64,000 nt of DNA from Kiloniellales bacterium (lineage in GTDB: Bacteria > Pseudomonadota > Alphaproteobacteria > Kiloniellales > JAKSDN01), in the NCBI GenBank assembly GCA_028280455.1, contig JANQLT010000157.1:28215-92214 (forward strand). The letters are read 5' to 3'. This document shows, one piece after another, positions 11,250 to 26,158 of this stretch; position 1 is the first letter of the stretch; every line of letters starts with the position of its first letter. The notes under the pieces were generated by a model. It saw only the letters and a list, made by a program, of their open reading frames with translations. It had not been told where the DNA came from and made no database searches. Both the position numbers and the translations under genes were made by a program.

Positions 11250-11447
11250 ATGAGCAAGAAGGAACCGACGTCCCTCGGTCGTCGCGACTTCTTCAAGACA
11301 GCGGGTGTCGGCGTTGCCGGCGCTGCGGCTGTCGGGCTTACCGCCGCCAAGGCGGGAGCCGTGGAGTCGAAAGACCGGTCGGCCGACAGCGCCGGCTATC
11401 GCGAGACCGAGCACGTGAAGAAGTACTACGAGCTCTCTCGGTTCTAA
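11250..11447 (+). CDS. Small Tat-signal protein of the 'formate dehydrogenase region TAT target' type
   Basis: 65 aa, with an AGGAGA Shine-Dalgarno and a twin-arginine motif GRRDFFKTAGVGVAGAAA. It lies immediately upstream of the FDH alpha subunit. Confidence 0.65.
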   Translation: MSKKEPTSLGRRDFFKTAGVGVAGAAAVGLTAAKAGAVESKDRSADSAGYRETEHVKKYYELSRF

Positions 11448-11478: not shown

Positions 11479-14346
11479 ATGCTTACGAAGAAGACGAATG
11501 GGGTGGCGAATGGCCCCCGTTTGTCCAAGGCGTTGGCAGGCGTCGTCGGCAGTGCGATCGATCGCCGGACCTTCCTGAAGCGTTCCGGTCTGACCGCGGG
11601 TGGTGCCGCGGCCTTGACCGCGATGTCCTCGGGCATGGTCCGCAAGGCGGAAGCCGCGGCGGCCTCTGGCTCTGTCCAGATGGTCAAATCGATCTGTACG
11701 CACTGCTCGGTGGGCTGCACGGTTGTCGCCGAGGTACAAAACGGGGTCTGGGTCGGTCAGGAGCCCGGCTGGGACAGCCCCTTCAATCTCGGCGCCCATT
11801 GCGCCAAGGGCGCGTCGGTGCGCGAGCATGCGCACGGCGAGCGCCGCCTGAAGCACCCTGTCAAGCTCGTCGACGGCAAGTGGCAGAGGGTGAGCTGGGA
11901 AGACGCGGTCAACGAGATCGGCGACAAGATGCTCGAGATCCGCGAGAAGTCGGGTCCCGACTCCGTCTACTGGCTCGGCTCCGCCAAGTTCAGCAACGAG
12001 CAGGCCTATCTCTTCCGTAAGTTCTACGCCTTCTGGGGCTCGAACAACGGCGATCACCAGGCGCGGATCTGTCACTCGACCACGGTCGCGGGTGTTGCGA
12101 ACACCTGGGGCTACGGCGCGATGACGAACTCCTACAACGACATCCACAACTCCCGCGCCATCTTCGAGATCGGCGGCAACCCCGCCGAGGCTCACCCGGT
12201 CGCCCTGCAGCACATGCTCAAGGCGAAGGAGCAGAACAACGCGCCCTTCATCGTGTGCGACCCGCGCTTCACGCGCACGGCCGCGCATGCCGACGAGTTT
12301 GTCCGCTTCCGTCCAGGCACCGACGTGGGCCTGATCTGGGGCATCCTCTGGCACGTCTTCGAGAACGGCTGGGAGGACAAGGAGTTCATCCGCCAGCGTG
12401 TCTGGGGCATGGACCAGATCCGGGCCGAGGTCGCCAAGTGGACGCCGGAAGAGACCGAGCGCGTCACCGGCGTGCCGGGCTCGCAGCTCAAGCGCGTCGC
12501 GCGGACGCTGGCCAATCACCGCCCCTTCACGATCATCTGGTGCATGGGCGGCACGCAGCACACCAACGGCAACAACAACACCCGTGCCTATTGCGCCCTG
12601 GGCCTGGCCCTCGGCGTGATCGGGACCTCGGGCGGCGGGGCCAACATCTTCCGCGGCCACGACAACGTCCAAGGCGCCACGGACTTCTGTGTGCTGTCGC
12701 ACAGCCTGCCCGGCTACTACGGCCTGAAGACCGGCTCGTGGAAGCACTGGGCGCGGGTTTGGGATGTCGACTACGACTACCTGCTGGGCCGTTTCGCCAG
12801 CAAGGAGCTGATGGAGTCGAAGGGCATCCCGGTCTCGCGTTGGGCCGACGGCGTGCTCGAAGCCAAGGAGAACATGGATCAGCCTGACAAGCTCAAGGCG
12901 ATGGTGTTCTGGGGTCATGCGCCCAACTCGCAGACCCGCGGCGTCGACCAGAAGAAGGCCATGGAGGCCCTCGATCTGCTGGTCGTCATCGATCCCTATC
13001 CGACGATGACGGCGGTGGTTCACGACCGCAAGGACGGCGTCTATCTCCTGCCGGCGGCGACCCAGTTCGAGACCTACGGCTCGGTGACAGCGTCGAACCG
13101 CTCGCTGCAGTGGCGCGACAAGATCTTCGAGCCGCTGTTCGAGGCCCGGCCCGACCAGGACATCATCTACGCGATGGCCGAGAAGTTCGGCTTCGCCGAC
13201 GAGATGTTCAAGCACATCAAGGTCGAGAACGGTGCCCCGCTGGTCGAGGACGTGACCCGCGAGTTCAACAAGGGCATGTGGACCATCGGCTACACCGGCC
13301 AGTCGCCGGAGCGCATGAAGGCGCACATGGCCCATCAGCACACCTTCGACAGGACCACCCTGCAAGCCGTGGGCGGCCCGGTCGATGGCGACTACTACGG
13401 TCTGCCGTGGCCTTGCTGGGGCACGGCGGAGATGGGCCATCCCGGCACCCCGATCCTCTACGACACCTCGAAGCCGGTCGCCGAAGGCGGCCTCTGCTTC
13501 CGGGCGCGTTTCGGGGTCGAGCGGGAAGGCGACAACCTCTTGGCCGAAGGCAGCTATCCGGCCGGCTCGGAGATCCAGGACGGCTATCCCGAGTTCACCA
13601 TGGCCATGCTCAAGGAGCTTGGCTGGGATGGCGATCTGACCGCCGACGAGCGCTCGACGATCGAGGCCATCGCCGGCGACAAGACCAACTGGAAGACCGA
13701 CCTCTCCGGCGGCATCCAGCGGGTCGCCATCAAGCATGGCTGCGCGCCCTTCGGCAACGCCAAGGCCCGTACCGTGGTCTGGACCTTCCCGGACCCGGTG
13801 CCCCTGCACCGCGAGCCTCTCTACACCTCGCGGCGCGACCTCGTGGCCGACTATCCGACCTATTCGGATCGCAAGGCCTATCGCCTGCCGACCCTCTACG
13901 AGTCGATCCAGAAGAACGATTTCTCGGGCGAGTTCCCGATCATTCTGACTTCCGGACGCCTCGTGGAATACGAGGGCGGCGGCGACGAGACGCGCTCGAA
14001 CCCCTGGCTGGCCGAGCTGCAGCAGGACATGTTCGCCGAGATCAATCCCTTCGATGCCAACGAGAACGGCATCAAGGACGGCGACATGGTCTGGCTGCAC
14101 ACCCCGGAAGGCGCCAAGGTCAAGGTTATGGCCCAGGTGACCGAGCGGGTCGGCCGCGGCGTCGCCTTCATGCCGTTCCACTTCGGCGGGCATTTCCAGG
14201 GTGAGGACCTCCGCAGCAAGTATCCGGAGGGTGCCGATCCCTATGTCCTCGGCGAGGCCTGTAACACGGCCATGACCTACGGCTACGACTCCGTGACGCA
14301 GATGCAGGAGTCGAAGGTCAGCCTGTGTCGTCTCGAGCGCGCGTAA
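11479..14346 (+). CDS. Formate dehydrogenase alpha subunit (Tat-exported molybdopterin enzyme, Cys type)
   Basis: 955 aa. Tat signal DRRTFLKRSGL; FeS motif CTHCSVGCTV; active-site HQARICHSTTVAG with Cys (TGT at 12070-12072) where Sec-type enzymes have U. Confidence 0.95.
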   Translation: MLTKKTNGVANGPRLSKALAGVVGSAIDRRTFLKRSGLTAGGAAALTAMSSGMVRKAEAAAASGSVQMVKSICTHCSVGCTVVAEVQNGVWVGQEPGWDSPFNLGAHCAKGASVREHAHGERRLKHPVKLVDGKWQRVSWEDAVNEIGDKMLEIREKSGPDSVYWLGSAKFSNEQAYLFRKFYAFWGSNNGDHQARICHSTTVAGVANTWGYGAMTNSYNDIHNSRAIFEIGGNPAEAHPVALQHMLKAKEQNNAPFIVCDPRFTRTAAHADEFVRFRPGTDVGLIWGILWHVFENGWEDKEFIRQRVWGMDQIRAEVAKWTPEETERVTGVPGSQLKRVARTLANHRPFTIIWCMGGTQHTNGNNNTRAYCALGLALGVIGTSGGGANIFRGHDNVQGATDFCVLSHSLPGYYGLKTGSWKHWARVWDVDYDYLLGRFASKELMESKGIPVSRWADGVLEAKENMDQPDKLKAMVFWGHAPNSQTRGVDQKKAMEALDLLVVIDPYPTMTAVVHDRKDGVYLLPAATQFETYGSVTASNRSLQWRDKIFEPLFEARPDQDIIYAMAEKFGFADEMFKHIKVENGAPLVEDVTREFNKGMWTIGYTGQSPERMKAHMAHQHTFDRTTLQAVGGPVDGDYYGLPWPCWGTAEMGHPGTPILYDTSKPVAEGGLCFRARFGVEREGDNLLAEGSYPAGSEIQDGYPEFTMAMLKELGWDGDLTADERSTIEAIAGDKTNWKTDLSGGIQRVAIKHGCAPFGNAKARTVVWTFPDPVPLHREPLYTSRRDLVADYPTYSDRKAYRLPTLYESIQKNDFSGEFPIILTSGRLVEYEGGGDETRSNPWLAELQQDMFAEINPFDANENGIKDGDMVWLHTPEGAKVKVMAQVTERVGRGVAFMPFHFGGHFQGEDLRSKYPEGADPYVLGEACNTAMTYGYDSVTQMQESKVSLCRLERA

Positions 14347-14360
14347 GGAGGATCTGAACT

Positions 14361-14960
14361 ATGGCTGCACGTATGAAGTTCCTCTGCGACGCCGAGCGCT
14401 GCATCGAGTGCAACGCTTGCGTCACCGCGTGTAAGAACGAGCACGAAGTCCCCTGGGGTGTGAACCGCAGGCGGGTCGTGACCATCAACGACGGCAAGCC
14501 CGGCGAGCGCTCGATCTCGGTGGCCTGCATGCATTGCTCCGACGCACCCTGCATGGCGGTCTGCCCGGTCGACTGCTTCTACGAGACCGAGGAAGGCGTG
14601 GTCCTGCACTCCAAGGACCTTTGCATCGGTTGCGGCTACTGCTTCTACGCCTGCCCCTTCGGGGCACCGCAGTACCCGCAGGCCGGCAACTTCGGCAGCC
14701 GGGGCAAGATGGACAAGTGCACCTTCTGTGCTGGCGGACCGGAAGAGGATCACTCCTCGATCGAGTTCTCCAAGTACGGACGCAACCGTCTTGCGGAAGG
14801 CAAGCTCCCGCTTTGCGCCGAGATGTGCGCCACCAAGGCGCTCCTCGCCGGCGATGGCGACACGGTGTCCGACATCTACCGCGAGCGCGTGGTCGCCCGC
14901 GGCTTCGGGTCGGGCGCCTGGGGCTGGGGCACGGCTTACGAAGTCAAGTCGGGCTCCTGA
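14361..14960 (+). CDS. Formate dehydrogenase beta (4x[4Fe-4S] ferredoxin) subunit
   Basis: Multiple CxxCxxCxxxC clusters (CIECNACVTAC, CMHCSDAPC, CIGCGYCFYAC, CTFC). Confidence 0.9.
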   Translation: MAARMKFLCDAERCIECNACVTACKNEHEVPWGVNRRRVVTINDGKPGERSISVACMHCSDAPCMAVCPVDCFYETEEGVVLHSKDLCIGCGYCFYACPFGAPQYPQAGNFGSRGKMDKCTFCAGGPEEDHSSIEFSKYGRNRLAEGKLPLCAEMCATKALLAGDGDTVSDIYRERVVARGFGSGAWGWGTAYEVKSGS

Positions 14961-15001
14961 AGATCGGTCGAGAGACCGGCCTCGACGGTCGTTACGGCGC
15001 G

Positions 15002-15023
15002 GGGGCGGCGGTTTCGCCGCCCC
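15002..15023 (+). other. GC-rich stem-loop between FDH beta and downstream genes
   Basis: GGGGCGGCG-GTTT-CGCCGCCCC with no U-tract. It may be an intra-operon processing or stability element. Confidence 0.3.
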
Positions 15024-15191
15024 GTGGCCGCCTTCGACCCAGGCGGTCTTCCGACCGGGGCCGCGCGAGAGCGGCGAAAGCCGGGCGGCAACGCGGGCCG
15101 CGGCGGCCACAGGTAAGCGAAACTGAGACCGGCGGGGCGCCCGGGGGCGGCCTCTCGCGGTCTGTCTTGGGTTGGAGGAGGCGGAGCCATC

Positions 15192-15389
15192 ATGGCTAGG
15201 CGGTCGTCAGCTCTGTTGCTTTGGCCTCTTGTCGCGCTGCCGCTGGTCCTGGCAGGTTGCGACGAGGCGGAGCAGGGCCGGATCCTGCGCTACGAGAAAG
15301 GCGTCTACTTGGGTCCGGAGGACACCAAGCTGGATCAAGAGACGCTCGACCAATTGCGTCAGCGCACGCGTCTGCAGCAGGGCAGCTAG
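15192..15389 (+). CDS. Small lipoprotein (65 aa), function unknown
   Basis: Strong Shine-Dalgarno (GGAGGAGGCGGAG) and a lipobox LVLAGC after a hydrophobic signal. It lies between the FDH beta and gamma genes. Confidence 0.5.
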   Translation: MARRSSALLLWPLVALPLVLAGCDEAEQGRILRYEKGVYLGPEDTKLDQETLDQLRQRTRLQQGS

Positions 15390-15431
15390 GCGCGACAAGA
15401 AGCGATTTCCTAGGGTCAGGGACGAAGGCGA

Positions 15432-16592
15432 ATGGTTGACTTGAAGCAGAGGGCGCTCGGGCGCTTCTTTGAGGGCGGCGTGGCGATGCTCGTTGCCGCC
15501 TTGCTGGTGCTGGGCCTGGCTACGGCCGTCAGCCCGGAGGCCTTGGCCCAGGGCGCACAGGACAGCCTGCGCGAAGTGGCACCAGAGTCGCCGACGGGCG
15601 GGACGGTGCCGGGGCAGTCGCTCGGATTCAACAGCGATTCCGAGATCTGGCGCGCGGTGCGCGAGGGCGCGTTTGGCGCGGTGTCCGGGCCCAACAAGGC
15701 GTCGGGCAACTTGATCCAGTCCGAGGGCGACAACTGGCGGGCCATCCGAAATGGCCCGCTGTTGGTTTACGGCGGCAGCCTCGTGCTCGGCTTCATCGGC
15801 TTGACGGCCCTGTTCTTCCTGTTCCGCGGCCGGATCCGCATCGACGCAGGGCCGAGCGGCAGGACGATGTTGCGCTTCAACGGCATCGAGCGTTTCGCCC
15901 ACTGGATGACGGCGGTCAGCTTCATCATCCTGGCGCTGACCGGCTTGAACCTGCTCTACGGCAAGGAGGTCCTGATCCCGCTGCTTGGCAAGGAGGCCTT
16001 CGCCACGATCAGCGGCTGGGGCAAGATTGCCCACAACTACTTGGCTTTCCCCTTCATGTTCGGCGTGGTGATGATGTTCGTCCTCTGGGTGGCGCACAAC
16101 ATCCCGAACCGGCACGATATCAAGTGGCTGCTCATCGGCGGCGGCCTCTTCGTCAAGAACGTCCATCCGCCGGCGCGCAAGTTCAATGCCGGCCAAAAGC
16201 TGATCTTCTGGTCCGTGATCCTGGGTGGCCTTTCTCTCGGCCTCTCCGGTTGGGCTCTGTTGTTTCCCTTCACCACGACCTTCTTCGCCGACACCTTCGC
16301 GGTCCTGAACGTGTTCGGCTTGGGCCTGCCGACCGATCTGACCCTGATGCACGAGATGCAGCTCAACCAGCTCTGGCACGGCATCGTCGGCTTCATCATG
16401 ATGGGCGTCATCGTCGGGCACATCTACATCGGGACGCTCGGCATGGAAGGCGCCTTCGCCGCGGTGGGGAGCGGCCATGTCGACGTCAACTGGGCGCGCG
16501 AGCACCACAGCCTCTGGGTCGAAGAGCACGAGGACTTCATGGATCCGGCACCCGACGCGGAAGGGCCCGGCAGGGCTCAGCCGGCGGAATAG
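15432..16592 (+). CDS. Formate dehydrogenase gamma (cytochrome b) subunit with N-terminal periplasmic extension
   Basis: 386 aa. Multiple TM helices with the conserved His residues of FdnI-like cytochrome b (ERFAHWMTAVSF, IAHNYLAFPF, QLWHGIVGF, HIYIGT). Confidence 0.85.
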   Translation: MVDLKQRALGRFFEGGVAMLVAALLVLGLATAVSPEALAQGAQDSLREVAPESPTGGTVPGQSLGFNSDSEIWRAVREGAFGAVSGPNKASGNLIQSEGDNWRAIRNGPLLVYGGSLVLGFIGLTALFFLFRGRIRIDAGPSGRTMLRFNGIERFAHWMTAVSFIILALTGLNLLYGKEVLIPLLGKEAFATISGWGKIAHNYLAFPFMFGVVMMFVLWVAHNIPNRHDIKWLLIGGGLFVKNVHPPARKFNAGQKLIFWSVILGGLSLGLSGWALLFPFTTTFFADTFAVLNVFGLGLPTDLTLMHEMQLNQLWHGIVGFIMMGVIVGHIYIGTLGMEGAFAAVGSGHVDVNWAREHHSLWVEEHEDFMDPAPDAEGPGRAQPAE

Positions 16593-16689
16593 GCCCGGAG
16601 AGGAGATCACGGAGATCCAAGCCGCCCTTGGGGTGCCCATGTCCATGCAGTACGATGTCGGCACGGATGTCCGGCTGGGAGAGCGGCAG

Positions 16690-17358
16690 ATGCGCATGGC
16701 GGGTGGAGAGCGGCTGGCCGCCGTCGGGATGTCTTTGGCCGTCCTGATGGGCGCCTCGGCGCTGCCGGCCCTGGGGGACGAGCGGCTGCAGCAGGCGGTC
16801 GGCCCGGGCGGCGCGCCCGGCAGCGTGACTAGCCAGGTGCTGGCCAAGATGCCCGAGGGCTTCCCCATCGAGGTCGTGCTGTTCGACGACTCGGACACCA
16901 ACATCGAGCTGCGCGCGCTGCTGATTCAAGGCCTGGAGCGCCATGGCCATATCGTCGGCGAGGGAGCGCCGCTCGAGCTGGCCTTCGAGTCGGAGGTGAT
17001 GGAGGCGAACTTCCAGGACGATGACGCCCCGAGCCTCGGCCGCATCCAGTCCAGCAACCAGAACCAGACCGGCAACCGCGGCTCGGCGCGCGGCGTCGAG
17101 GCCGAAGTCAACCTCTGGTCGACGACCAAGGACTCCCTGCTCGGCGGCCGCCAGAAGCGCCTGGCCCAGTCGAAGCACTCGCTCTTCCACATCAATGCGA
17201 TCCTGCGCGATCGGGAGAGCGGTCGGGTGATCTGGCAAGGCGACGCGCTCTGCGAGATGCTGACCAGCAACCGCACGCGCCTGCTCCGCTCGATGGCGGA
17301 GCCCCTGGCCGCCTCGGTCGGCAAGACCGTGGTCGACGAGCCCTTCGATATTCGGTGA
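16690..17358 (+). CDS. Exported hypothetical protein
   Basis: I chose the ATG at 16690, preceded by GGGAGA, which gives the signal-like N-terminus MRMAGGERLAAVGMSLAVLMGASALPALG. The ATG at 16639 is an alternative. I recognise no domain. Confidence 0.5.
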   Translation: MRMAGGERLAAVGMSLAVLMGASALPALGDERLQQAVGPGGAPGSVTSQVLAKMPEGFPIEVVLFDDSDTNIELRALLIQGLERHGHIVGEGAPLELAFESEVMEANFQDDDAPSLGRIQSSNQNQTGNRGSARGVEAEVNLWSTTKDSLLGGRQKRLAQSKHSLFHINAILRDRESGRVIWQGDALCEMLTSNRTRLLRSMAEPLAASVGKTVVDEPFDIR

Positions 17359-17376
17359 GACGGCTCGCGGGGCTTC

Positions 17377-18768
17377 ATGAGTCGTTGGCACGTCACCGAT
17401 AGCCCGATCGTCCGGTTCTTCGCTCGACGCGGCGCCGTCGCGGCCCTTCTGCTGGCGCTCGGCCTCGTCGCGGCCCCCGGGCCGGCGCCCGCCGAGCTCA
17501 CCGGCCACGGCGGCTTCGTCAAGGGCGTCGCCGTCTCAGCGGACGGCAGCCTGGCGCTGAGCGCCAGCTTCGACTACCGGCTGATCCTCTGGGACATCGC
17601 CGAGCAGAGCGCCCTCTTGGTGCTCGAAGGCCACGAAGGCTCGGTCAACGCCGTGGCCTTCCTGCCGGACGGCGGCCGGGCGGTCTCGGGCGCCGACGAC
17701 GGCACGGTCCGGCTCTGGGACCTCGGCGAGGGGCGGCTGCTGCACAGCTTCGACGGGCATGCCGGCAAAGTCGCCCATGTCGCGGTCTCGCCCGACGGCC
17801 GGCGGGCGGCCTCGGCCGGCTGGGACAAGACCGTGCGTCTCTGGGACCTCGAGCGCCTGGAGCCGCTCGGCGTGCTCGAGGGCCACCGCAACAACGTCAA
17901 CGGCGTGGCCTTCCTGCCGGACGGCGAGCGCCTGCTGAGCGGCAGCTACGACTCGACCATGAAGCTCTGGCACCTGGCCGACGGGCGCAGCATCGCGACC
18001 TACGACGGGCACGACTTCGGGATCACCTCGGTCTCCGTCTCCGCCGACGGCCGCCTCGCGCTGACCGCGAGCGTCGACGAGACCTTGCGGCTCTGGGACC
18101 TCGACAGCGGCGAGACGCTGGAGACCTTCGTCGGCCACGACGGACCGATCTTCGGGGCGGCGCTGTCGGCCGACGGCAGCCGCGCGGCCTCCGGCGGCGC
18201 CGACCGCACGGTCCGCGTCTGGGACACCGACAGCGGCGAGCTGCAGTTCGAGCTGCTCGGCCACGGCCAGCCGATCTGGTCGCTCGCCTTCGTGCCCGGC
18301 GCCCGCTCCCTGTTGTCGGCCGGCTCTGACGAGGTGGTTCGGCTGTGGGATCTGGTCGATGGCCGCGAGATCGGCGGCGACGGCGACCGGGTGGCGAGCG
18401 CGACCCTGCCCGAGCCGCGCTCCGAGAGCGAGCGGCGCGGCGCCGCGCTCTACGCCAAGTGCAGCGTCTGCCACACCCTCGGCCCCGAGGGAGGCAACAA
18501 CCGCGCCGGCCCGAACCTGCACGGCCTGTTCGGCCGCCGCGCCGGCAGCCTGGAGGGCTACAGCTACTCGGAGGCCCTGCTGGCCAGCGACCTGGTCTGG
18601 AACGAGGAGACCATCGACCTGCTCTTCGCCGAGGGACCCGACGAGTACACCCCGGGCTCCAAGATGCCCTTGCAGCGCATGCCGAGCGCCGAGGACCGCG
18701 CCGATCTGATATCCTATCTGAAGCTGGTCACGGGTGCCGGGGGCGCCGAAGCCGGCGCGGACGACTGA
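17377..18768 (+). CDS. Periplasmic seven-bladed WD40 propeller fused to a C-terminal class I cytochrome c domain
   Basis: Signal peptide; seven GH...(L/V)WD(L/I/T) repeats (one ends in WH). The C-terminal domain has the heme motif CSVCH, a mitochondrial/c2-like GPNLHGLFGRRAG segment and the Met ligand region GSKMPLQ. Confidence 0.85.
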   Translation: MSRWHVTDSPIVRFFARRGAVAALLLALGLVAAPGPAPAELTGHGGFVKGVAVSADGSLALSASFDYRLILWDIAEQSALLVLEGHEGSVNAVAFLPDGGRAVSGADDGTVRLWDLGEGRLLHSFDGHAGKVAHVAVSPDGRRAASAGWDKTVRLWDLERLEPLGVLEGHRNNVNGVAFLPDGERLLSGSYDSTMKLWHLADGRSIATYDGHDFGITSVSVSADGRLALTASVDETLRLWDLDSGETLETFVGHDGPIFGAALSADGSRAASGGADRTVRVWDTDSGELQFELLGHGQPIWSLAFVPGARSLLSAGSDEVVRLWDLVDGREIGGDGDRVASATLPEPRSESERRGAALYAKCSVCHTLGPEGGNNRAGPNLHGLFGRRAGSLEGYSYSEALLASDLVWNEETIDLLFAEGPDEYTPGSKMPLQRMPSAEDRADLISYLKLVTGAGGAEAGADD

Positions 18769-18813
18769 GCGACGGGGGCGCGGCGGCGACATGAACACAA
18801 TGGGGATACGGAG

Positions 18814-18957
18814 ATGAGAGCCTTCCTGACCGGCTGCCTCGGCGCGCTCGTGATCGCCGTGGCAGCCCACTACGTGCTCGACTCGCTGGGCTACAGCTCG
18901 GAGAACGTCTACTCCAGCGACAACGTCCGCCTGCCGGAGGTCCGCACCGCGGAGTAG
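18814..18957 (+). CDS. Small membrane protein candidate (47 aa), absent from the ORF track
   Basis: My translation is MRAFLTGCLGALVIAVAAHYVLDSLGYSSENVYSSDNVRLPEVRTAE, with one TM helix. It is below the track's length cut-off. Confidence 0.3.
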   Translation: MRAFLTGCLGALVIAVAAHYVLDSLGYSSENVYSSDNVRLPEVRTAE

Positions 18958-18978
18958 GCGGGCGCGGGAGTCACGCTC

Positions 18979-19069
18979 GTCATCGCGCGCGCAGCGAAGC
19001 GATCCAGCCTGTCGCAGGTGCGATGCGGTTCCTGGATTGCCGCGCCGGCTGACGCCGGCTCGCAATGAC
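18979..19069. repeat. Alphaproteobacterial palindromic intergenic repeat (GTCATYGCG...GCGAAGCGATCCAG / CTGGATTGC...CGCAATGAC type)
   Basis: The left arm (18979-19007) and right arm (19032-19069) are imperfect reverse complements ending in GTCAT.../...CAATGAC. Confidence 0.6.
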
Positions 19070-19092
19070 GGCGCCGAGTCGCGTCTCCTTTT

Positions 19093-19298
19093 CCCTCTCC
19101 CCCGACGAGGGAGAGGGATGCGCAGCCTTCTCGAGGCGTAGCCGAGATTTAGGCGAAGCTGGGTGAGGGGGCGGTCGTTTTCCACCTCAACATTGCATCA
19201 TTCTCGCGCGCCGGCGTCGTGGAGGAGCGCGACGAAAGACACCCTCACCCTCCCACCGCTTCGCGGCGGGCCCCTCCCTCTCCCCTCGAGGGAGAGGG
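19093..19298. repeat. Composite inverted repeat (MITE/REP-like): two CCCTCTCCC-loop-GGGAGAGGG hairpins plus a GGGTGAGGG / CCCTCACCC pair
   Basis: Hairpin A is at 19093-19117 and hairpin B at 19276-19298. GGGTGAGGG (19161-69) faces CCCTCACCC (19242-50). The layout is roughly symmetric around ~19205. Confidence 0.55.
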
Positions 19299-19372
19299 GA
19301 CAAGGGGCTCGCTTTACCTTCACCCGTCGGCTGGGCAAGGACAGGGGAGCTTCCATTTACGGCGAAGGAGGA

Positions 19373-20548
19373 TCACTCCCGCGCGCCGGCCTCGCGAAGC
19401 AGCGCGGCGATCTCGTCGTCGCCGATCATCTCGGCGGCCTGCAGGGCGGTCCAGCCGTCCTTGGCGGCGATGTTGGGATCGGCGCCGGCGCGCAGCAGCA
19501 TGCGAACCGCCTCCAAGCGGCCGCGGTTGGCGGCCAGCATGAGGGCCGTGTTGCCGCTCTCCGCCACCGTCGCATCGACGTCGGCGCCGCGCGTCAGCAG
19601 GACGTAGAGCGTGCTGCGCTGGTCGGCGAGGGCGGCCAGCATCAGGGGGCGGTGGCCGTCGTGGCCCGGCGCCTCGATGGGGGCGAGGTTCTCGAGCAGG
19701 GCGATCACCGTGTCGACGTGGCCGGAGACCACGGCGCGGCCGAGCGGCGTGCGGCCCTCGTCGTCGGCCGCCTCGGTGTCGCCGCCGGCCGCGATCAGGC
19801 GGCGCAGCGCCTCGGTCGCGCCGACCGCGGCGGCGCGCAGGACGGCGCTGGCGCCGCCGGCGTCGCGGGCCGTGGCATCGGCGCCGGCGTCGAGCAGCAG
19901 GTCGACCGCCGGCCTGTTGCCGCGCGCGGCGGCCGCGATCAGGGCGGTGGTGCCGTCCTCGGCCGCGATCTCGACGCTGGCGCCGGCCGCCAGGAGATAC
20001 GCGACGATCTGCGGGAAATCCGGGTTGAAGGCGGCGTTGATCAGCGGCGTGTTGCCGTCGCTGCTGTCGCGGGCGTCGAGCGCCGCGCCGGCCTCGACCA
20101 GCGCGGCCACCACCCGCCGCTGGCCGCGGCGGGCGGCGAGCAGCAACGGCGAGTTGCCGTGGTCGCGCTCGCGTGCCTCCAGCGGTGCTCCGGCCGCGAT
20201 CAGCGCGCGGGCGATGCGGTCGTTGCCGGCGTAGGCGGCGTAGTGCAGGGCGGTCCAGAGGTCATCGGGCGTCGCCGCGCCCGGGTCGGCGCCGCGCTCC
20301 AGCAGGAGGGTCGCGACCTCCAGGCTCTTGGTCGCGGCGGCGATCATCAGCGCCGTGTTGCCGTCGGCGTCACGGGCTTCCAGGTCGGCGCCCTTCTCCA
20401 GGGCGAAGTCGGCGAGCTCGCCGTCGTCGAGCCGGGCGGCCTGCAGCAGTGCCTGATCGGGAACCGCTTCCTGGGCGAGCCCGGGCGCCGCCGCCGGGCC
20501 CGCGAGGACCAGAAGCAGGCAGAAGCCGAGTGCGGCCCTCAGGCCCAC
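19373..20548 (-). CDS. Exported ankyrin-repeat protein (about 11 repeats)
   Basis: The GTG start lies 1 nt after the fdsA stop, with GGAG upstream. Signal peptide MGLRAALGFCLLLVLAGPAAAPGLA. Tandem ankyrin consensus (G.TALM.AA..G....V..LL..GAD). Confidence 0.85.
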   Translation of the reverse strand: MGLRAALGFCLLLVLAGPAAAPGLAQEAVPDQALLQAARLDDGELADFALEKGADLEARDADGNTALMIAAATKSLEVATLLLERGADPGAATPDDLWTALHYAAYAGNDRIARALIAAGAPLEARERDHGNSPLLLAARRGQRRVVAALVEAGAALDARDSSDGNTPLINAAFNPDFPQIVAYLLAAGASVEIAAEDGTTALIAAAARGNRPAVDLLLDAGADATARDAGGASAVLRAAAVGATEALRRLIAAGGDTEAADDEGRTPLGRAVVSGHVDTVIALLENLAPIEAPGHDGHRPLMLAALADQRSTLYVLLTRGADVDATVAESGNTALMLAANRGRLEAVRMLLRAGADPNIAAKDGWTALQAAEMIGDDEIAALLREAGARE

Positions 20549-20549
20549 C

Positions 20550-23318
20550 TCACTCCGCCGCCAGCATGGTCTCGAGCTTCGTCACCCGGGCGGCGCAGGC
20601 CTTGAAGCCGGGGATCTTGCCGAAGGGATCGAGCTGCGGGCTGGTCAGCAGGTTGGCCGCGGCCTCGGCGTAGCAGAAGGGCAGGAAGACCATGCCCTCG
20701 GGCATGTCGGGGTCGACGCGGACCTGCACGTCGAGGCCGGCGCGCCGGGTCTCGACCCGGATGCAGTCGCCGGCCTTGAGGCCACGGCGGCGCATCTCGA
20801 GCGGCGAGAGGCTGGCGACGGCGCCGGGCTCCAGGTCGTCGAGCACGCCGGCGCGCCGGGTCATGGAGCCGGTGTGCCAATGCTCCAGCACGCGGCCGGT
20901 GCAGAGCACCATCGGGAACTCCTCGTCCGGCTGCTCGTCCTCGGCCAGCGAGCCGGCCGGAACCAGGCGGACGCGGCCGCTGGCGGTCGGGAAGCGCTCG
21001 GCGAAGATGATCTCGTTGCCGGGCTTGTCCGGCGCGTCGCAGGGGTAGGTGACGGAGTCCTCGCGCTCCAGGCGCTCCCAGGTGATGTTCTTGAGCGAGG
21101 GCATGGCCTGGGCCATCTCGGCGAAGACGTCGCTGGCGCCGCCGTAGGACCAGTCGAGACCCATGCGCTGGGCGATGTCCTGGATCAGCGCCAGGTCCTG
21201 ACGCGCCTCGCCGGGCGGCGGCACGATCGGGCGGGCGAGCTGCACCTGGCGGTTGGTGTTGGTGAAGGTGCCGTACTTCTCGGCCTTGGCCGAGGCCGGC
21301 AGGATGACGTCGGCCTGCCAGGCGGTCTCGGTCAGGAAGATGTCCTGCACGACAAGGTGCTCGAGCTTGGCCAAGGCCTGGCGGGCGTGCTGCTGGTCGG
21401 GGTCCGACATCGCCGGGTTCTCGCCCATGATGTACATGGCCTTGATCTCGTCGGCGAGGATGGCGTCGATGATCTCCACCACCGTGAGGCCGCGCTTGGG
21501 ATCGAGCTGGGTGCCCCAGAAGGCCTCGAACTCGCTGCGGATGTCCTCGGCCTCGACCGAGCGGTAGTCCGGGAAGACCATGGGGATCAGGCCGGCGTCG
21601 GAGGCGCCCTGCACGTTGTTCTGGCCGCGCAGCGGGTGCAGGCCGGTGCCGGGCCGGCCGACGTGGCCGGTGATCGCCGCCAGGGTGATCAGGCAGCGGG
21701 CGTTGTCGGTGCCGTGAACGGACTGCGAGATGCCCATGCCCCAGAAGATGATCGAGCGCTCGGAGCGGGCGTAGATGCGCGCCACCTCGCGGATGGTGTC
21801 GGCCGGAATGCCGCAGCGCTCGGCCATGGCCTCCGGCGAGAAGGCCTTGATGTTCTCGCGGACCTCCTCGAAGCCGTCGACATGGGCCTGTACGTACTGC
21901 TCGTCGTAGAGGCCTTCCTCGATGATGGTGTGGATCATCGCGTTGAGCAGCGCCACGTCCTGGTTGGACTTGAACTGCAGCATGTAGTCGGCGTAGCGCG
22001 ATAGCATCTGCTTGCGCGGGTCCATGACGATCAGCATCTTGCCGGCCTTGGCGGCGTTCTTCAGGAAGGTCGCCGCGACCGGGTGGTTCTGCGCCGGGCG
22101 GGCGCCGATGACGATGATGCAGTCGGCGTCCTTGGCCGCGGTGAAGGGTGCCGTCACGGCGCCGGAGCTGACGCCTTCCATCAGGGCGGCCACCGAGGAG
22201 GCGTGGCACAGCCGGGTGCAGTGGTCGACGTTGTTGGTGCCGAAGCCGGTGCGCACCAGCTTCTGGAACAGATAGGCCTCCTCGTTGGAGCCCTTGGCCG
22301 AGCCGAAGCCGGCGAGGCCCTTGCCGCCCTCGCGGTCGCGCACGCGCTTGAGGCCGGCGGCGGCGACCTCCAGCGCCTCCTCCCAGCTCGCCTCGCGGAA
22401 GTGGCTCCAGGGGTTCGCCGGGTCGATCTCCAGGTCGGCGCCCTTGGTGGCGCCCTCCAGGCGGATCAGGGGCTTGGTCAGGCGGTGCGGGTGGTTGATG
22501 TAGTCGAAGCCGAAGCGGCCCTTGACGCAGAGCCGGTTCTGGTTGGCCGGGCCGTTGCGGCCGTCGACGTAGAGGATCTTGTCGTCCTTGACCTTGGCCT
22601 CGATCAGGCAGCCGACGCCGCAGAAGGGGCAGACGGAGTTGACGCTGCGCTCTTCGAAGTTCACGCGAACGCCCTGCTCGTCGAGCAGGCTGGCCTCCAT
22701 CAGGGCGCCGGTCGGGCAGGCCTGCACGCACTCGCCGCAGGCCACGCAGGTGCTCTCGCCCATGGGATCGTCGAAGTCGAAGACCACCTTCGAGCCGTGG
22801 CCGCGGTAGGCCATGCCGATCACGTCGTTGACCTGGACCTCGCGGCAGGCGCGGACGCAGAGGTTGCAGTTTATGCAGGCGTCGAGGTTGACCCGCATGG
22901 CGCGGTGGCTGGAGTCCGGTGCGTGGGCCTCGCGGGCCGGGAATCGATTCTCGTCGACGCCGACCTTGTCGACCCAGTTCCAGAACTTGGACTCCGGATC
23001 GTGCGCCACGGCGCGCTCGGGCTGGTCGGCGACCAGCAGCTCGAAGACCAGCTCGCGCGACTTCTTGGCCCGCTCGCTGGCGGTCTTGACCTTCATGCCG
23101 GGGCTCGGCTTGCGGATGCAGGAGGCGGCCAGGACCCGCTCGCCCTCGATCTCGACCATGCAGGCGCGGCAGTTGCCGTCGGCGCGGTAGCCGGGCTCGG
23201 GCGAATAGCAGAGGTGCGGGATTTCGACTCCCTGGCGCTCGGCGACCTGCCAGATGGTCTCGCCGGGCTGCGCCTCGACCTCGCGGTCGTTCAAGGTGAA
23301 GGTTACGGTCTCGGTCAT
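20550..23318 (-). CDS. fdsA: NAD-linked formate dehydrogenase alpha subunit (NuoG-like N-terminus plus molybdopterin domain)
   Basis: The start is the ATG at 23318 (MTETVTFTLNDREVEA). It has a 2Fe-2S/4Fe-4S N-terminal module, CPFCGVGC and the active-site region DHCTRLCHASSV (Cys type). 922 aa. Confidence 0.95.
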   Translation of the reverse strand: MTETVTFTLNDREVEAQPGETIWQVAERQGVEIPHLCYSPEPGYRADGNCRACMVEIEGERVLAASCIRKPSPGMKVKTASERAKKSRELVFELLVADQPERAVAHDPESKFWNWVDKVGVDENRFPAREAHAPDSSHRAMRVNLDACINCNLCVRACREVQVNDVIGMAYRGHGSKVVFDFDDPMGESTCVACGECVQACPTGALMEASLLDEQGVRVNFEERSVNSVCPFCGVGCLIEAKVKDDKILYVDGRNGPANQNRLCVKGRFGFDYINHPHRLTKPLIRLEGATKGADLEIDPANPWSHFREASWEEALEVAAAGLKRVRDREGGKGLAGFGSAKGSNEEAYLFQKLVRTGFGTNNVDHCTRLCHASSVAALMEGVSSGAVTAPFTAAKDADCIIVIGARPAQNHPVAATFLKNAAKAGKMLIVMDPRKQMLSRYADYMLQFKSNQDVALLNAMIHTIIEEGLYDEQYVQAHVDGFEEVRENIKAFSPEAMAERCGIPADTIREVARIYARSERSIIFWGMGISQSVHGTDNARCLITLAAITGHVGRPGTGLHPLRGQNNVQGASDAGLIPMVFPDYRSVEAEDIRSEFEAFWGTQLDPKRGLTVVEIIDAILADEIKAMYIMGENPAMSDPDQQHARQALAKLEHLVVQDIFLTETAWQADVILPASAKAEKYGTFTNTNRQVQLARPIVPPPGEARQDLALIQDIAQRMGLDWSYGGASDVFAEMAQAMPSLKNITWERLEREDSVTYPCDAPDKPGNEIIFAERFPTASGRVRLVPAGSLAEDEQPDEEFPMVLCTGRVLEHWHTGSMTRRAGVLDDLEPGAVASLSPLEMRRRGLKAGDCIRVETRRAGLDVQVRVDPDMPEGMVFLPFCYAEAAANLLTSPQLDPFGKIPGFKACAARVTKLETMLAAE

Positions 23319-23338
23319 CGCCTGCTCCGTCGCATGCC

Positions 23339-25063
<1,725 letters not shown>

Positions 25064-25104
25064 TTGACAGCTCTTGCGCCTGTTCTCTTTCCGTCGGCTC
25101 CGGA

Positions 25105-25119
25105 TTGCGTCACGCGCAA
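25105..25119. promoter_or_regulatory. Inverted repeat TTGCG-N5-CGCAA upstream of fdsB
   Basis: A perfect 5-bp-arm palindrome about 45 nt upstream of the fdsB start. It is a candidate site for the adjacent LysR regulator. Confidence 0.25.
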
Positions 25120-25171
25120 AACCGACCCCGAAGCATGGACTCTCGGCGCGATCGCTTCGGCTGGCAAATTG

Positions 25172-26113
25172 CTATTGCGGATTGCCCGATAGACCCTGTC
25201 GATCAAGCCGGGCGGCCCCCAGGCCGTCCCTGAGATGCTCGGATTCACAGATACTTAGAAGGGCCCGCGCCATGGGGGTCGGGGGGTCGCGGTCGGAGAT
25301 CACCAGGCCGATGTCATGCCGCAGGTCTGGCTCAACCAGGGGCAGTGCGGAGAGGCCCTCCGGCACCCCGAAGACGTCGACCATGGCCTGGGGCATGACG
25401 CTCGACCAATGCCCGGAGCGGACGTGGGCATAGAGCGTGATCATCGAGTTGGTCTCGATCTCCGGCGTCGGCGTGGCGCCGATGCCCTGGAAGATCTCGT
25501 CGATGATGCGGCGGTTTTGCATCTCCGGCGTCAGCAGGCAAAGCGGCATCTCGGCCGCCTCGGTCCAGGTCACGGCCGCGCGCTCGCCGAGCGGCCCGTC
25601 GGCCGGCGTGAAGAGCACGTAGCCCTCGCGGTAGAGCGGCAGGCGGCGGACATGGTGCAGCGGCTCGTTGTCGAGGTAGGTGATGCCGCCGTCGATACTG
25701 TAGTCGTCGAGCCGGCGCTGGATCTCGATCGAGCTGATCGACAGGGCCTGGACGAAGACCCCCGGGTAGCGCGCCCGGAAGGTGCGGGTGATCAGCGGCA
25801 CCACCGGCAGGGCCGAGGGAATCACGCCGATCGAGAGCGTGCCGGTCAGCTCGGCGACCTGGGCGCTGGCCTCCTGGATCAGGGCATCGCAGTCCGAGAT
25901 GATGCGCCGCGCCCAGGCCAGCACCCGCTCGCCTTCCGGGGTCAGTCCCTCGTAGCGCTGGCCGCGGCGCACGATGGCGACGCCGAGCTCGTCCTCGAGC
26001 TGGCGGATCCGGGCCGAGAGCGTCGGCTGGGAGACGTGGCAGCTCTCGGCCGCGCGGGCGAAGTGGCGCTCGCGGGCCAGGGCCGAGAGATAGCGGAGCT
26101 GCCTCAGGTCCAT
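25172..26113 (-). CDS. LysR family transcriptional regulator
   Basis: N-terminal wHTH (MDLRQLRYLSALARERHFARAAESCHVSQPTLSARIRQLE) plus a LysR substrate-binding domain. Confidence 0.9.
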   Translation of the reverse strand: MDLRQLRYLSALARERHFARAAESCHVSQPTLSARIRQLEDELGVAIVRRGQRYEGLTPEGERVLAWARRIISDCDALIQEASAQVAELTGTLSIGVIPSALPVVPLITRTFRARYPGVFVQALSISSIEIQRRLDDYSIDGGITYLDNEPLHHVRRLPLYREGYVLFTPADGPLGERAAVTWTEAAEMPLCLLTPEMQNRRIIDEIFQGIGATPTPEIETNSMITLYAHVRSGHWSSVMPQAMVDVFGVPEGLSALPLVEPDLRHDIGLVISDRDPPTPMARALLSICESEHLRDGLGAARLDRQGLSGNPQ

Positions 26114-26158
26114 GCGTCGGACAGGCTCGGCTGCGGCGGGCGTGGGGCGAGGGCGGCG

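Follow-up and report, generated by a model that had tools for sequence, protein, structure and literature searches.

The window analyzed here, a 64,000-nucleotide stretch of DNA from a Kiloniellales bacterium, encodes a genuine exported protein in which a seven-bladed WD40 propeller is joined to a mitochondrial-type cytochrome c. The gene follows an operon for a formate dehydrogenase (FDH) of the predicted periplasmic FDH3 type. We put at about even the chances that the fusion is a conserved accessory component and electron carrier of the FDH3-type (Fdh3ABC-like) system of Alphaproteobacteria, with its propeller docking and its heme domain relaying electrons.

A genuine fusion of a WD40 propeller and a cytochrome c

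The gene and its parts are as follows.

17377..18768, + strand: the whole WD40-cytochrome c fusion gene, 463 amino acids plus stop, open reading frame intact
17377..17493, + strand: Sec-type signal peptide, amino acids 1-39, read from the sequence, with predicted cleavage after A37-P38-A39
17494..18354, + strand: seven-bladed canonical WD40 beta-propeller, amino acids 40-326 (seven PF00400 repeats, AlphaFold2, Foldseek)
18355..18435, + strand: interdomain linker, amino acids 327-353, flexible, with pLDDT down to 64-71
18436..18732, + strand: class I mitochondrial-type cytochrome c domain, amino acids 354-452 (PF00034, phmmer against the PDB, alignment with horse cytochrome c)
18460..18474, + strand: heme-attachment motif C362-S-V-C365-H366, invariant in 34/34 and 6/6 sequences
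18664..18666, + strand: Met430, the predicted sixth heme ligand, in the signature PG[ST]KMPxQ and aligned with Met80 of mitochondrial cytochrome c

An earlier sequence-only reading of this DNA had raised the concern that two genes might have been joined by artefact. Such an origin, whether by frameshift, by misassembly or as a chance open reading frame in GC-rich DNA, now has a negligible probability and is already refuted. The frame is intact, its codon-position GC is typical of genuine genes in the window (GC3 = 0.94), and both domains are matched significantly. The identical 463-amino acid gene call comes from L091, a second and independent assembly of this sequence. Hundreds of genomes, complete ones from cultured strains among them, encode homologs over the full length.

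The N-terminus runs from a basic to a hydrophobic segment and then to A-P-A|E, and an N-terminus of this type, with AxA directly ahead of HGG, is present in every family member compared (n=34). The pair R17-R18 prompted the idea of Tat export, which was ruled out. The twin arginine is not kept in relatives, and for this reason we infer Sec rather than Tat export. The predicted Sec-type signal would place the mature protein in the periplasm.

The AlphaFold2 model of the fusion has a mean pLDDT of 88.7 and a pTM of 0.82. Within it, the propeller (pLDDT ~95-98) consists of 28 strands, arranged as seven four-stranded blades with an N-terminal closing strand, and Pfam finds seven tandem PF00400 repeats (E 6e-74, 241.8 bits against a cut-off of 27). 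Residues ~40-330 superpose in Foldseek on the bacterial WD40 propeller 5yzv (TM 0.96, target; rmsd 1.4 A; 41% identity). The closest Foldseek matches are bacterial, at 40-41% identity to bacterial WD40 proteins versus 25-31% to eukaryotic ones. Conservation in the propeller peaks in blades 1-3, together with blade 7, and H44-G45-G46, F65-D66 and W149-D150 are invariant in three orders. The propeller is strongly acidic across the family (net charge -6 to -28), with a conserved patch, and shows no sign of a cofactor site. The best 25 of the 45 Pfam matches of the fusion are all WD40-type families, with no PQQ family, no PF02239 and no NB-ARC domain among them. PQQ-related accessions and PF02239 turn up only for some homologs, in Pfam lists computed beforehand.

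The linker is 20-40 amino acids long among 34 members and its sequence is unconserved. This variability in length and sequence, along with the low pLDDT, fits a mobile heme domain.

The C-terminal domain alone matches PF00034 (E 4e-9, 38.1 bits against a cut-off of 21.3). In a phmmer search of the PDB it matches yeast iso-1 cytochrome c with E 1.8e-24, and it shares 41% identity with horse cytochrome c. M430, which lies in PGSKM, is invariant in 34/34 family members and in 6/6 sequences from three orders, as is the family-specific heme-edge signature KMPxQ across those orders. The domain is thus predicted to be a six-coordinate His/Met cytochrome of class I. Its surface has changed, however. 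Asp and Glu replace horse Lys72 and Lys73, and the lysine-rich surface is mostly lost, with 1-8 lysines in the family versus 19 in the horse protein. The covalent fusion with its signal peptide, seven repeats, CSVCH and Met ligand had been recognized in the sequence-only reading, and Pfam, AlphaFold2, Foldseek and phmmer now bear it out.

A widespread and undescribed family

Full-length relatives of the fusion form more than 100 protein clusters and are found in 494 species-representative genomes. They span three orders of Alphaproteobacteria and include cultured model organisms, with members in Sinorhizobium meliloti, Bradyrhizobium, Methylobacterium bullatum and Sagittula stellata. Database names for them are limited to "c-type cytochrome" or "hypothetical protein," and no family model for the whole fusion was found in databases. 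When a profile of the family alignment was searched against a 1.84-billion representative library, the best 150 matches were giant multi-propeller WD40 proteins. Literature searches on a WD40/cytochrome c/formate dehydrogenase fusion returned no publication. No WD40-cytochrome c partner is mentioned in two papers on FDH3 (PMC2991311 and bioRxiv 10.1101/329011), a scope that does not extend to the original 2004/2007 descriptions. We conclude that a fusion family adjoining FDH3-type genes across Alphaproteobacteria is undescribed.

The fusion gene and its FDH3-type neighbors

The genes around the fusion in the window are listed here.

11250..11447, + strand: 65-amino acid "formate dehydrogenase region TAT target" protein, with the motif YRETEHVKKYY
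11479..14346, + strand: FDH alpha subunit (Mo/W-bisPGD), with a twin-arginine signal and the Cys-type active site HQARICHS
14361..14960, + strand: FDH3 beta subunit, short 4Fe-4S ferredoxin-type (NF038355 FDH3_beta, 346 bits against a cut-off of 240)
15192..15389, + strand: 65-amino acid predicted lipoprotein with an LAGC lipobox, between the beta and gamma genes, kept in 61/70 loci
15432..16592, + strand: FDH gamma subunit, a di-heme cytochrome b of 386 amino acids (PF01292; TIGR01583, 137.6 bits against a cut-off of 115.85)
16639..17358, + strand: 239-amino acid exported hypothetical protein, ending 18 nt before the fusion start
18814..18957, + strand: conserved microprotein of 47 amino acids, with one N-terminal transmembrane helix and the tail ..VYSSDNVRL(+7)
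19373..20548, - strand: exported ankyrin-repeat protein (Ank repeats, E 3e-57), convergent with the fusion and microprotein genes

The beta and gamma subunits both score above their NCBIfam cut-offs, which marks the operon upstream of the fusion as that of a predicted periplasmic FDH of the FDH3 type. These scores and the positions of the open reading frames agree with the sequence-only reading, which had placed the fusion gene 18 nt behind an exported hypothetical gene and downstream of a periplasmic FDH operon. In the closest relative locus (L001), the homolog of the 65-amino acid Tat protein reaches 63.5 bits with TIGR02811 (cut-off 48.45). The beta subunit is short, at 198-200 amino acids, and the gamma subunit bears an extra N-terminal periplasmic segment and transmembrane helix. 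The 65-amino acid lipoprotein has no family match. Neither does the 239-amino acid hypothetical protein, which has homologs in only 25/79 loci and was ruled out as a core partner on that count. A homolog of the convergent ankyrin-repeat gene stands at the equivalent position in 26/70 loci. In a consensus scan of 14900-19500, the stretch from gamma to the fusion showed neither a sigma-70-like promoter nor a convincing terminator, a result of little weight in DNA of 68% GC.

Synteny was surveyed in 86 non-duplicate loci, with denominators that vary by gene. The gamma gene lies upstream of the fusion on the same strand in 68/70 loci, and alpha plus beta accompany the fusion in 47/53. A TorD-like chaperone gene is present in 48 of those 53 loci and the Tat small protein in 45/53. 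Other small exported or membrane proteins of the neighborhood include a PepSY-like protein of ~125 amino acids and a protein of 225 amino acids. The start of the fusion gene overlaps or almost abuts the preceding gene in Sagittula and Microbaculum, which, like the 18-nt gap in the window, is consistent with co-transcription.

The linkage survives rearrangement. In the Hyphomicrobiales (Sinorhizobium, Bradyrhizobium, Methylobacterium) a second gene order retains it, with the fusion ~6-10 kb from alpha, beta and gamma. A neighboring gene carries the PGAP label fdh3B in Sagittula, Sinorhizobium and Bradyrhizobium. The Methylobacterium bullatum homolog adjoins an FDH-type cluster; the genes of it that were detected are those for DUF3305, TorD-like and Tat small proteins. 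Three loci (L086, L088, L089) have neither alpha nor beta, and the fusion is found there still with gamma, the 65-amino acid lipoprotein gene and the microprotein gene; the cytochromes b of these loci score above the TIGR01583 cut-off.

The sequence-only reading had asked for profile searches and a look at neighborhood conservation, and had allowed that relatives might share no genomic context. The check came out strongly in favor of FDH linkage, and an FDH3-linked context is common to the relatives. Such a neighborhood fits the suggestion in that reading of a propeller that docks the heme domain onto a redox partner in the periplasm. Its further remark, that nothing more could be claimed from sequence, was too pessimistic; comparative genomics leads to a widespread FDH3-associated cassette with a microprotein partner gene.

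A microprotein gene downstream of the fusion

The gene neighborhood also reveals an unannotated conserved family of microproteins. A homolog lies directly 3′ of the fusion gene, on the same strand, in 73/82 non-duplicate loci, and nowhere else in those loci by HMM search of six-frame open reading frames. The gap from the fusion stop to the microprotein gene has a median of 70 nt. Gene calling predicts it, with a length of 41-47 amino acids, in several loci. V-R-L is the exact C-terminus of 46/59 unique microprotein sequences. There are no Pfam or NCBIfam family matches, and a word-index homology search gave 3 close relatives. Readthrough of the fusion stop codon into the microprotein was considered, as both genes share a frame in the window and a single stop codon separates them, and was ruled out by the spread of reading frames (23/26/16) over 65 loci. 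No microprotein was detected in the Hyphomicrobiales arrangement, and the L001 locus is likewise without one.

Proposed role in formate oxidation

The proposed mechanism starts from the position of the fusion family beside FDH3-type genes across Alphaproteobacteria, which suggests that the protein is FDH3's own electron carrier. The heme domain would be the redox-active part. The FDH3 chain would supply its electrons, through the iron-sulfur clusters of beta or else through the heme of the gamma cytochrome b that lies on the periplasmic side. A c-type acceptor could then receive them from the heme domain, for example a cytochrome c oxidase or a reductase in the periplasm. Formate oxidation would in this way gain a route to cytochrome c, besides or in place of the quinone pool. 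The propeller would dock or tether the carrier at the membrane-bound FDH3 complex. Its likely binding surface is formed by blades 7, 1, 2 and 3, as the invariant HGG, F65 and W149 are in loops expected on the top face. More speculatively, in the Rhodospirillales/Rhodobacterales operon type the microprotein of ~40 amino acids may anchor the propeller to the membrane, with its predicted periplasmic C-terminal ...VRL tail bound by the propeller. The microprotein is missing in Hyphomicrobiales and at L001, so such an anchor cannot be general. Electron transfer, docking and microprotein binding are all inferred from domain architecture and gene neighborhood.

Published work provides a precedent and a gap. 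For periplasmic FDHs of FdhAB type, c-type cytochromes are the reported redox partners (PMC4215793). Two accounts of FDH3 itself treat it as an enzyme that is predicted to be periplasmic and could not be assayed for activity (PMC2991311; bioRxiv 10.1101/329011), and by the first of these accounts it never was (PMC2991311). The short beta subunit and the FdhAB precedent were counted for a carrier role.

Several points count against that role. Enzymes resembling FDH-N that have a gamma cytochrome b normally deliver their electrons to quinone, with no need for a cytochrome c. A cytochrome c with a mitochondrial-type potential would waste most of the redox span of formate. Classical cytochromes c dock on bc1 and on oxidases through a lysine surface. 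That surface is largely missing in the fusion.

The same gene maps could be read in other ways. The propeller might organize or stabilize periplasmic FDH3 subunits or a supercomplex, with the cytochrome in a secondary part, for instance keeping cofactors reduced, off the main electron path. WD40 propellers are generic interaction platforms, and the acidity and conserved patch of this one would suit such a platform, as would the several small exported or membrane proteins encoded nearby (the lipoprotein, the PepSY-like and 225-amino acid proteins, and the microprotein). We nevertheless consider a scaffold unlikely. The invariance of CxxCH, the Met ligand and KMPxQ over three orders argues for a selected redox function, and some loci retain the fusion with no alpha or beta nearby. 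The absence of alpha and beta in those three loci would suit a carrier for another periplasmic pathway, serving for instance as donor for an oxidase, for a peroxidase or in denitrification, with proximity to fdh3 due to co-regulation or hitch-hiking. Such a carrier would also accommodate the Hyphomicrobiales, where other genes separate the fusion from alpha, beta and gamma, and the Algihabitans-type loci, where an opposite-strand gene splits it from the upstream FDH genes. This explanation is improbable in our judgment, however, as FDH3 linkage was found in every context examined (~80 species-level loci, two gene orders, three orders) and split operons keep the fusion with gamma.

The heme domain might instead sense periplasmic redox state or a ligand, with the propeller passing the signal on to a partner, for example a sensor kinase in the membrane. 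In Sagittula the cluster precedes a gene for a sigma-54-dependent regulator, and genes of a two-component system are near. Regulator genes are not conserved neighbors in the remaining loci, however, and the domain has the features of a standard six-coordinate His/Met mitochondrial-type cytochrome c, a type that typically serves as a carrier and not as a sensor. We regard a sensor as very unlikely, and the redox-sensing scaffold offered in the sequence-only reading gained no specific support.

A bolder form of the carrier proposal can be put forward tentatively, and we have more doubt than confidence in it as a whole. FDH3-type enzymes would be formate:cytochrome c oxidoreductases and the fusion, as their dedicated carrier, a novel type of membrane-tethered cytochrome c. 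Its WD40 module would capture the ...VRL tail of the microprotein and bind the gamma complex while the heme domain, on its flexible linker, shuttles electrons to terminal oxidases or reductases. The lipoprotein, gamma, fusion and microprotein genes would then make up a self-contained cytochrome b/cytochrome c module, able to exist apart from the catalytic subunits.

The carrier proposal matters for the physiology of FDH3, one of the formate dehydrogenases of methylotrophs and a cluster type that is also present in rhizobia and marine roseobacters. With a conserved cytochrome c linked to its operon, FDH3 has a concrete candidate acceptor, and a route by which periplasmic formate could feed the cytochrome c pool becomes accessible to testing. 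The fusion would also be unusual in itself, as a canonical WD40 interaction propeller in the bacterial periplasm and within a respiratory chain. Homologs occur in the tractable S. meliloti, Bradyrhizobium, Methylobacterium and Sagittula stellata E-37.

Comparison with known systems

The heme domain shares the CxxCH motif, the GPNLHGLFGR segment, the PGxKM Met ligand and the terminal helices with mitochondrial cytochrome c and bacterial cytochrome c2/c550. It differs from the mitochondrial protein in having lost most of the docking lysines and in carrying its own KMPxQ signature. While a free class I cytochrome c is a protein of ~100 amino acids, this one is tethered to a propeller of 290 amino acids.

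Covalent pairings of a propeller with a cytochrome c have precedents. In the periplasmic quinohemoprotein (type II) alcohol dehydrogenases, an N-terminal propeller is followed by a linker and then, at the C-terminus, by a class I cytochrome c; the propeller, eight-bladed and PQQ-binding, is the catalytic unit. The fusion has the same domain order, but with seven WD40 blades, and the catalytic enzyme, FDH3, is encoded separately. That it is itself such a dehydrogenase was ruled out by the seven blades and by the best 25 of the 45 Pfam matches, which hold no PQQ family. Cytochrome cd1 nitrite reductase, NirS, is also periplasmic, with an N-terminal cytochrome c domain and an eight-bladed catalytic heme d1 propeller (PF02239). 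NirS and the fusion both join a cytochrome c to a propeller covalently, in reversed order; the opposite domain order and the seven WD40 blades ruled out that the fusion is a NirS.

These precedents show that the sequence-only reading overstated its case in naming Apaf-1 as the only well-known WD40/cytochrome c relationship. In the apoptosome, Apaf-1 and cytochrome c interact non-covalently, in the cytosol and for signaling, and the interaction depends on lysines including Lys72. WD40 repeats and a mitochondrial-type cytochrome c are common to both systems, whereas the fusion has Asp at the Lys72 position and is without NB-ARC. With Asp and Glu at positions 72 and 73 and the lysine surface lost, no Apaf-1-like interaction is implied. 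Recognition of that kind was ruled out by the lysine-poor domain, its Asp at Lys72 and the lack of NB-ARC among the best 25 of 45 Pfam matches.

Anchored cytochromes provide another comparison. Cytochromes cy and c552 have a membrane anchor within the same polypeptide, which holds the cytochrome near its partners. The speculative anchor of the fusion would differ in being a separate polypeptide of ~40 amino acids. COPI WD40 propellers bind, on their top face, the dilysine tails at the extreme C-terminus of single-pass membrane proteins, and capture of the microprotein tail would resemble this as a functional analogy.

Among formate dehydrogenases, the periplasmic Mo/W enzymes of Desulfovibrio (FdhAB with Tp1-c3; FdhABC3) pass electrons from a short ferredoxin-type beta to a c-type cytochrome, which for some of them is a dedicated subunit (PMC4215793). 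These c3 partners are multiheme, of low potential and devoid of a propeller, and the present system adds the membrane cytochrome b gamma. The likeness to FDH3 of Methylobacterium extorquens (fdh3ABC) lies in the beta subunit, which in the window exceeds the NCBIfam cut-off for the FDH3_beta equivalog.

An exported propeller joined to a cytochrome c

17377..18768, + strand: WD40-cytochrome c fusion gene, an intact ORF of 463 aa

The sequence-only reading had placed a WD40 propeller and a cytochrome c domain in one ORF behind a signal peptide. Seven WD40 repeats are present (Pfam PF00400, E 6e-74), and the C-terminal part, scanned alone, scores 38.1 bits with PF00034 Cytochrom_C (cut-off 21.3). 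An AlphaFold2 model made from a family alignment of 34 sequences (mean pLDDT 88.7, pTM 0.82) arranges 28 strands in seven four-stranded blades, with an N-terminal closing strand and a helical cytochrome domain. In a Foldseek search of the PDB only the propeller superposed; the top matches were the bacterial WD40 proteins 5yzv (Thermomonospora) and 2ymu (40-41% identity, TM 0.96 on target), the eukaryotic WDR5, RACK1 and G-beta matched at 25-31% identity, and no solved structure matched the whole two-domain protein. The Pfam, PDB, AlphaFold2 and Foldseek results together confirm the fusion far beyond chance, and show the protein to be an exported propeller, a flexible linker and a His/Met cytochrome c.

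As read from the sequence, residues 1-39 run from a basic through a hydrophobic stretch to A-P-A|E, a Sec-type signal. We infer Sec export because the twin arginine of the window protein is not kept among its relatives; c-type apocytochromes are usually Sec-exported.

Among PDB entries, the cytochrome domain matches those of mitochondrial cytochrome c (yeast iso-1, E 1.8e-24), and it is 41% identical to the horse protein. C362-S-V-C365-H366 aligns with the heme-attachment motif and M430 (PGSKM) with Met80. Invariant across the family are CxxCH, Met430, AGPxL, FGR and a family-specific heme-edge signature, PG[ST]KMPxQ. Across the family the domain carries 1-8 lysines, with net charges from -4 to +8; horse cytochrome c has 19 lysines and +9. 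Asp and Glu occupy the positions of horse Lys72 and Lys73. The classical lysine docking surface is therefore not conserved.

The propeller has a strongly negative net charge (-6 to -28 across the family), and its residues H44-G45-G46, F65-D66 and W149-D150 are invariant family-wide. Conservation clusters in blades 7, 1, 2 and 3, in the GH-containing D-A loops and SxD B-C loops, the region in which F65 and W149 sit; judged by canonical WD40 topology, these loops would form the top face. The linker (about 327-353) is modelled at low confidence (pLDDT 64-71), and across the family it varies from 20 to 40 aa with no conserved sequence, which suggests that the heme domain is mobile.

A widespread family

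Among 5.8 billion protein clusters, more than 100 match the fusion protein at 48-68% identity over about 90-97% of the query (about 420-480 aa), and those named by their source are called "c-type cytochrome" or "cytochrome c". In a scan of one genome per GTDB species, the architecture is widely conserved at full length, with relatives encoded in 494 genomes. Nearly all of the best 80 carry labels of Rhodospirillales-type Alphaproteobacteria (Kiloniellales, Pelagibius, Rhodovibrionaceae, Algihabitans, Inquilinus, Ferruginivarius and others). A tblastn search of PLSDB added homologs of full length, covering residues 40-452 at 38-41% identity, on replicons of cultured Hyphomicrobiales and Rhodobacterales, namely Methylobacterium bullatum, Sinorhizobium meliloti, S. 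medicae, Bradyrhizobium, Sulfitobacter, Sagittula stellata E-37 and Alloyangia, and Microbaculum (Hyphomicrobiales, Tepidamorphaceae) encodes one as well. What had been called an intriguing curiosity is thus no peculiarity of the source genome. Its public annotation is generic: no NCBIfam model spans the fusion, cytochrome models giving just weak partial matches, and we found no published paper on a WD40-cytochrome c fusion.

That two genes were joined by misassembly or frameshift is hardly credible, since the family is conserved and the same gene stands in an independent public assembly of this sequence (L091), with gene calls of 65, 386, 239, 463 and 47 aa likewise. The ORF has a GC3 of 0.94 and codon-position GC like that of real genes in the window (68% GC). 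The exact protein sequences of the fusion (17377..18765) and of the ankyrin gene (19373..20548) were not found in a 15-billion-protein collection; the near neighbours (65, 239, 386 and 47 aa) are there, from a 108-kb NCBI contig and Logan assemblies.

Linkage to FDH3

Upstream of the fusion gene lie the genes of a periplasmic formate dehydrogenase of the FDH3 type and their neighbours, in this order:

Start of the series: FdhD, MobA, DUF3305, TorD-like chaperone
11250..11447, + strand: 65-aa Tat-signal protein of the TIGR02811 "formate dehydrogenase region TAT target" type, before alpha
11479..14346, + strand: FDH alpha, Mo/W-bisPGD, Tat-exported with its own twin-arginine motif, Cys-type active site HQARICHS
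After alpha: FDH beta, short (NF038355 FDH3_beta, 346 bits, cut-off 240)
15192..15389, + strand: 65-aa predicted lipoprotein with an LAGC lipobox, between beta and gamma
After the lipoprotein: FDH gamma, cytochrome b (TIGR01583, 137.6 bits, cut-off 115.85)
Between gamma and the fusion gene: 239-aa exported hypothetical protein

The alpha subunit has no selenocysteine, the lipoprotein matches no family, and the Tat-signal protein's homolog in the closest relative (L001) exceeds the TIGR02811 cut-off. The fusion gene does lie 18 nt 3' of the exported hypothetical gene and downstream of the periplasmic FDH genes, as first described. Homologs of this 239-aa neighbour occur in only 25 of 79 loci, so it is not part of the core.

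Conservation of the neighbourhood had been proposed as a check on the FDH link, and the outcome is positive. We surveyed 86 non-duplicate related loci by tblastn with the window proteins; of the 70 with enough flank, 68 have gamma upstream on the same strand. Alpha and beta were found in 47/53, the TorD-like gene in 48/53 and the Tat small protein in 45/53. The lipoprotein is kept in 61/70, and remains with gamma and the fusion gene where alpha and beta are absent. The gene order of the window recurs in Sagittula stellata E-37, where the PGAP annotations are fdh3B, formate dehydrogenase subunit gamma, c-type cytochrome and a 42-aa hypothetical protein. The order differs in S. meliloti, Bradyrhizobium and M. 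bullatum, where the fusion gene is convergent with a gene for a 650-690 aa 4Fe-4S protein; beyond it come lipoate-ligase-family, DUF6505, DUF6352, DUF3305, DUF3306 and TorD genes, then the Tat small protein, alpha, fdh3B and gamma (for M. bullatum, only the DUF3305, TorD-like and Tat small-protein genes were detected). The exceptions are instructive: at L086, L088 (the place of L065) and L089 (the place of L083) there is a compact cassette amid unrelated genes, and neither alpha nor beta lies within 10 kb. In L088 and L089 it comprises a 65-71 aa protein, gamma, a PepSY-like protein of about 125-170 aa, the fusion protein and a 42-aa ORF; L086 has the gamma and 65-aa genes downstream of, and convergent with, the fusion and 42-aa genes. 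The cytochromes b at these places still exceed the FDH-gamma cut-off. Where the operon is broken up, the fusion gene stays with gamma. The family is genomically tied to FDH3, most tightly to gamma, and survival of this linkage through rearrangement, across three bacterial orders, is strong evidence of a functional connection.

Several other genes recur in these loci. The multi-4Fe-4S protein stands beside FDH3 clusters in L092 (S. meliloti), L096 (Bradyrhizobium), L085, L087, L090 and L095. Genes of the lipoate-protein-ligase family and DUF6352 are also found in the clusters of S. meliloti, Bradyrhizobium and Microbaculum (L090), with DUF6505 in the first two; none of these four is close to the fusion gene in the window. 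The exported PepSY-like protein (L001 6825..7211; also L003, L004, L085 and L087-L089) has a core that looks PepSY-like by eye and no Pfam match. It lies between gamma and the fusion gene in 52/79 loci and is absent from the window. In L087 (4765..7601) FDH alpha is split into 562-aa and 89-aa pieces around an opposite-strand 201-aa ORF, with the gamma, fusion and microprotein genes intact.

A microprotein gene behind the fusion gene

18814..18957, + strand: microprotein gene, 47 aa, directly 3' of the fusion gene; one transmembrane helix, C-terminal ...NVRL

This product, MRAFLTGCLGALVIAVAAHYVLDSLGYSSENVYSSDNVRLPEVRTAE, comes from a partner gene that had so far gone unnoticed. Homologs detected by regex served to build an HMM, which was run against all six-frame ORFs of the loci. 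Of the 82 non-duplicate loci that extend far enough downstream, 73 have the gene, one copy each; it always follows closely on the fusion gene and shares its strand, and it occurs nowhere else in these loci of about 20 kb. The gap from the upstream stop is -4 to 136 nt (median 70), and the frame distribution (23/26/16) rules out readthrough from the fusion gene. The consensus is MKAF, a hydrophobic helix and ..S..VYSxxNVRL (median length 40 aa), and 46 of 59 unique sequences end exactly in V-R-L. Gene callers and PGAP annotate it as a hypothetical protein, and no family in Pfam or NCBIfam matches it. The positive-inside rule would place its N-terminus in the cytoplasm and the conserved tail in the periplasm. 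The microprotein might anchor the propeller to the membrane, an idea that is more speculative because the gene is not universal: the closest relative (L001/L002) lacks it, and none was detected in loci with the Hyphomicrobiales arrangement.

In L001 (68% identity) and L002, two radical SAM/SPASM genes and two small ORFs (L001 9746..11899) take its place after the fusion gene; they look like a peptide-maturation cassette.

The region downstream

19373..20548, - strand: exported ankyrin-repeat protein, 391 aa, with signal peptide; convergent with the fusion and microprotein genes
20550..25171 and 25172..26158, - strand: second FDH, cytoplasmic and NAD-linked (FdsA-like alpha, fused NuoE/NuoF-like subunit, LysR regulator)
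19080..19118 and 19278..19311: two copies of a G+C-rich palindrome, CCCTCTCCCC..GAGGGAGAGGG
19197-19235 and 19372-19410: second direct repeat

The NAD-linked FDH genes are convergent to the FDH3 cluster, a pairing that recurs in many related loci, and the ankyrin gene comes last after them. A convergent ankyrin homolog holds the same position in 26/70 loci, and in some of these neither FdsA nor FdsB follows it. Two predicted periplasmic proteins, each of a repeat type more familiar from eukaryotes, thus face each other between two FDH systems. The repeats lie in the 415-nt microprotein-ankyrin intergenic region and could be REP-like elements or bidirectional terminators.

Proposed role

We give about an even chance to the WD40-cytochrome c being a dedicated c-type electron carrier of FDH3. 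The propeller would dock or tether the protein at the membrane FDH3 complex, and the heme domain would carry electrons from the FDH3 chain to a c-type acceptor. Against a dedicated carrier, FDH-N-like enzymes normally reduce quinone through gamma, and passing electrons to a high-potential cytochrome c would waste redox span.

A carrier for another pathway, merely co-located with FDH3, is unlikely in view of the linkage that survives rearrangement. A structural or assembly scaffold is improbable to a similar degree, and a redox sensor is a fainter prospect than either. For the dedicated carrier there is precedent in periplasmic FdhAB-type enzymes, which use c-type cytochromes as partners and in some cases include a cytochrome subunit of their own (PMC4215793). 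FDH3 activity itself has yet to be assayed (PMC2991311), and its periplasmic location is only predicted (bioRxiv 10.1101/329011). The fusion protein is a widespread, uncharacterised accessory of this poorly understood formate dehydrogenase, and the hypotheses about it can be tested in model organisms.

Comparison with known systems

Taken singly, the domains are ordinary members of PF00034 and PF00400. A quinohemoprotein alcohol dehydrogenase is ruled out, as the propeller of the fusion is made of seven WD40 blades and none of the best 25 of its 45 Pfam matches is a PQQ family. So is a cd1 nitrite reductase, in which the domain order is opposite; the fusion has no d1 propeller. Nor is the fusion Apaf-1-like, since the protein is without NB-ARC and Lys72 is not conserved. 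The functional resemblance is to a tethered, dehydrogenase-specific cytochrome c, the tether here being an interaction propeller.
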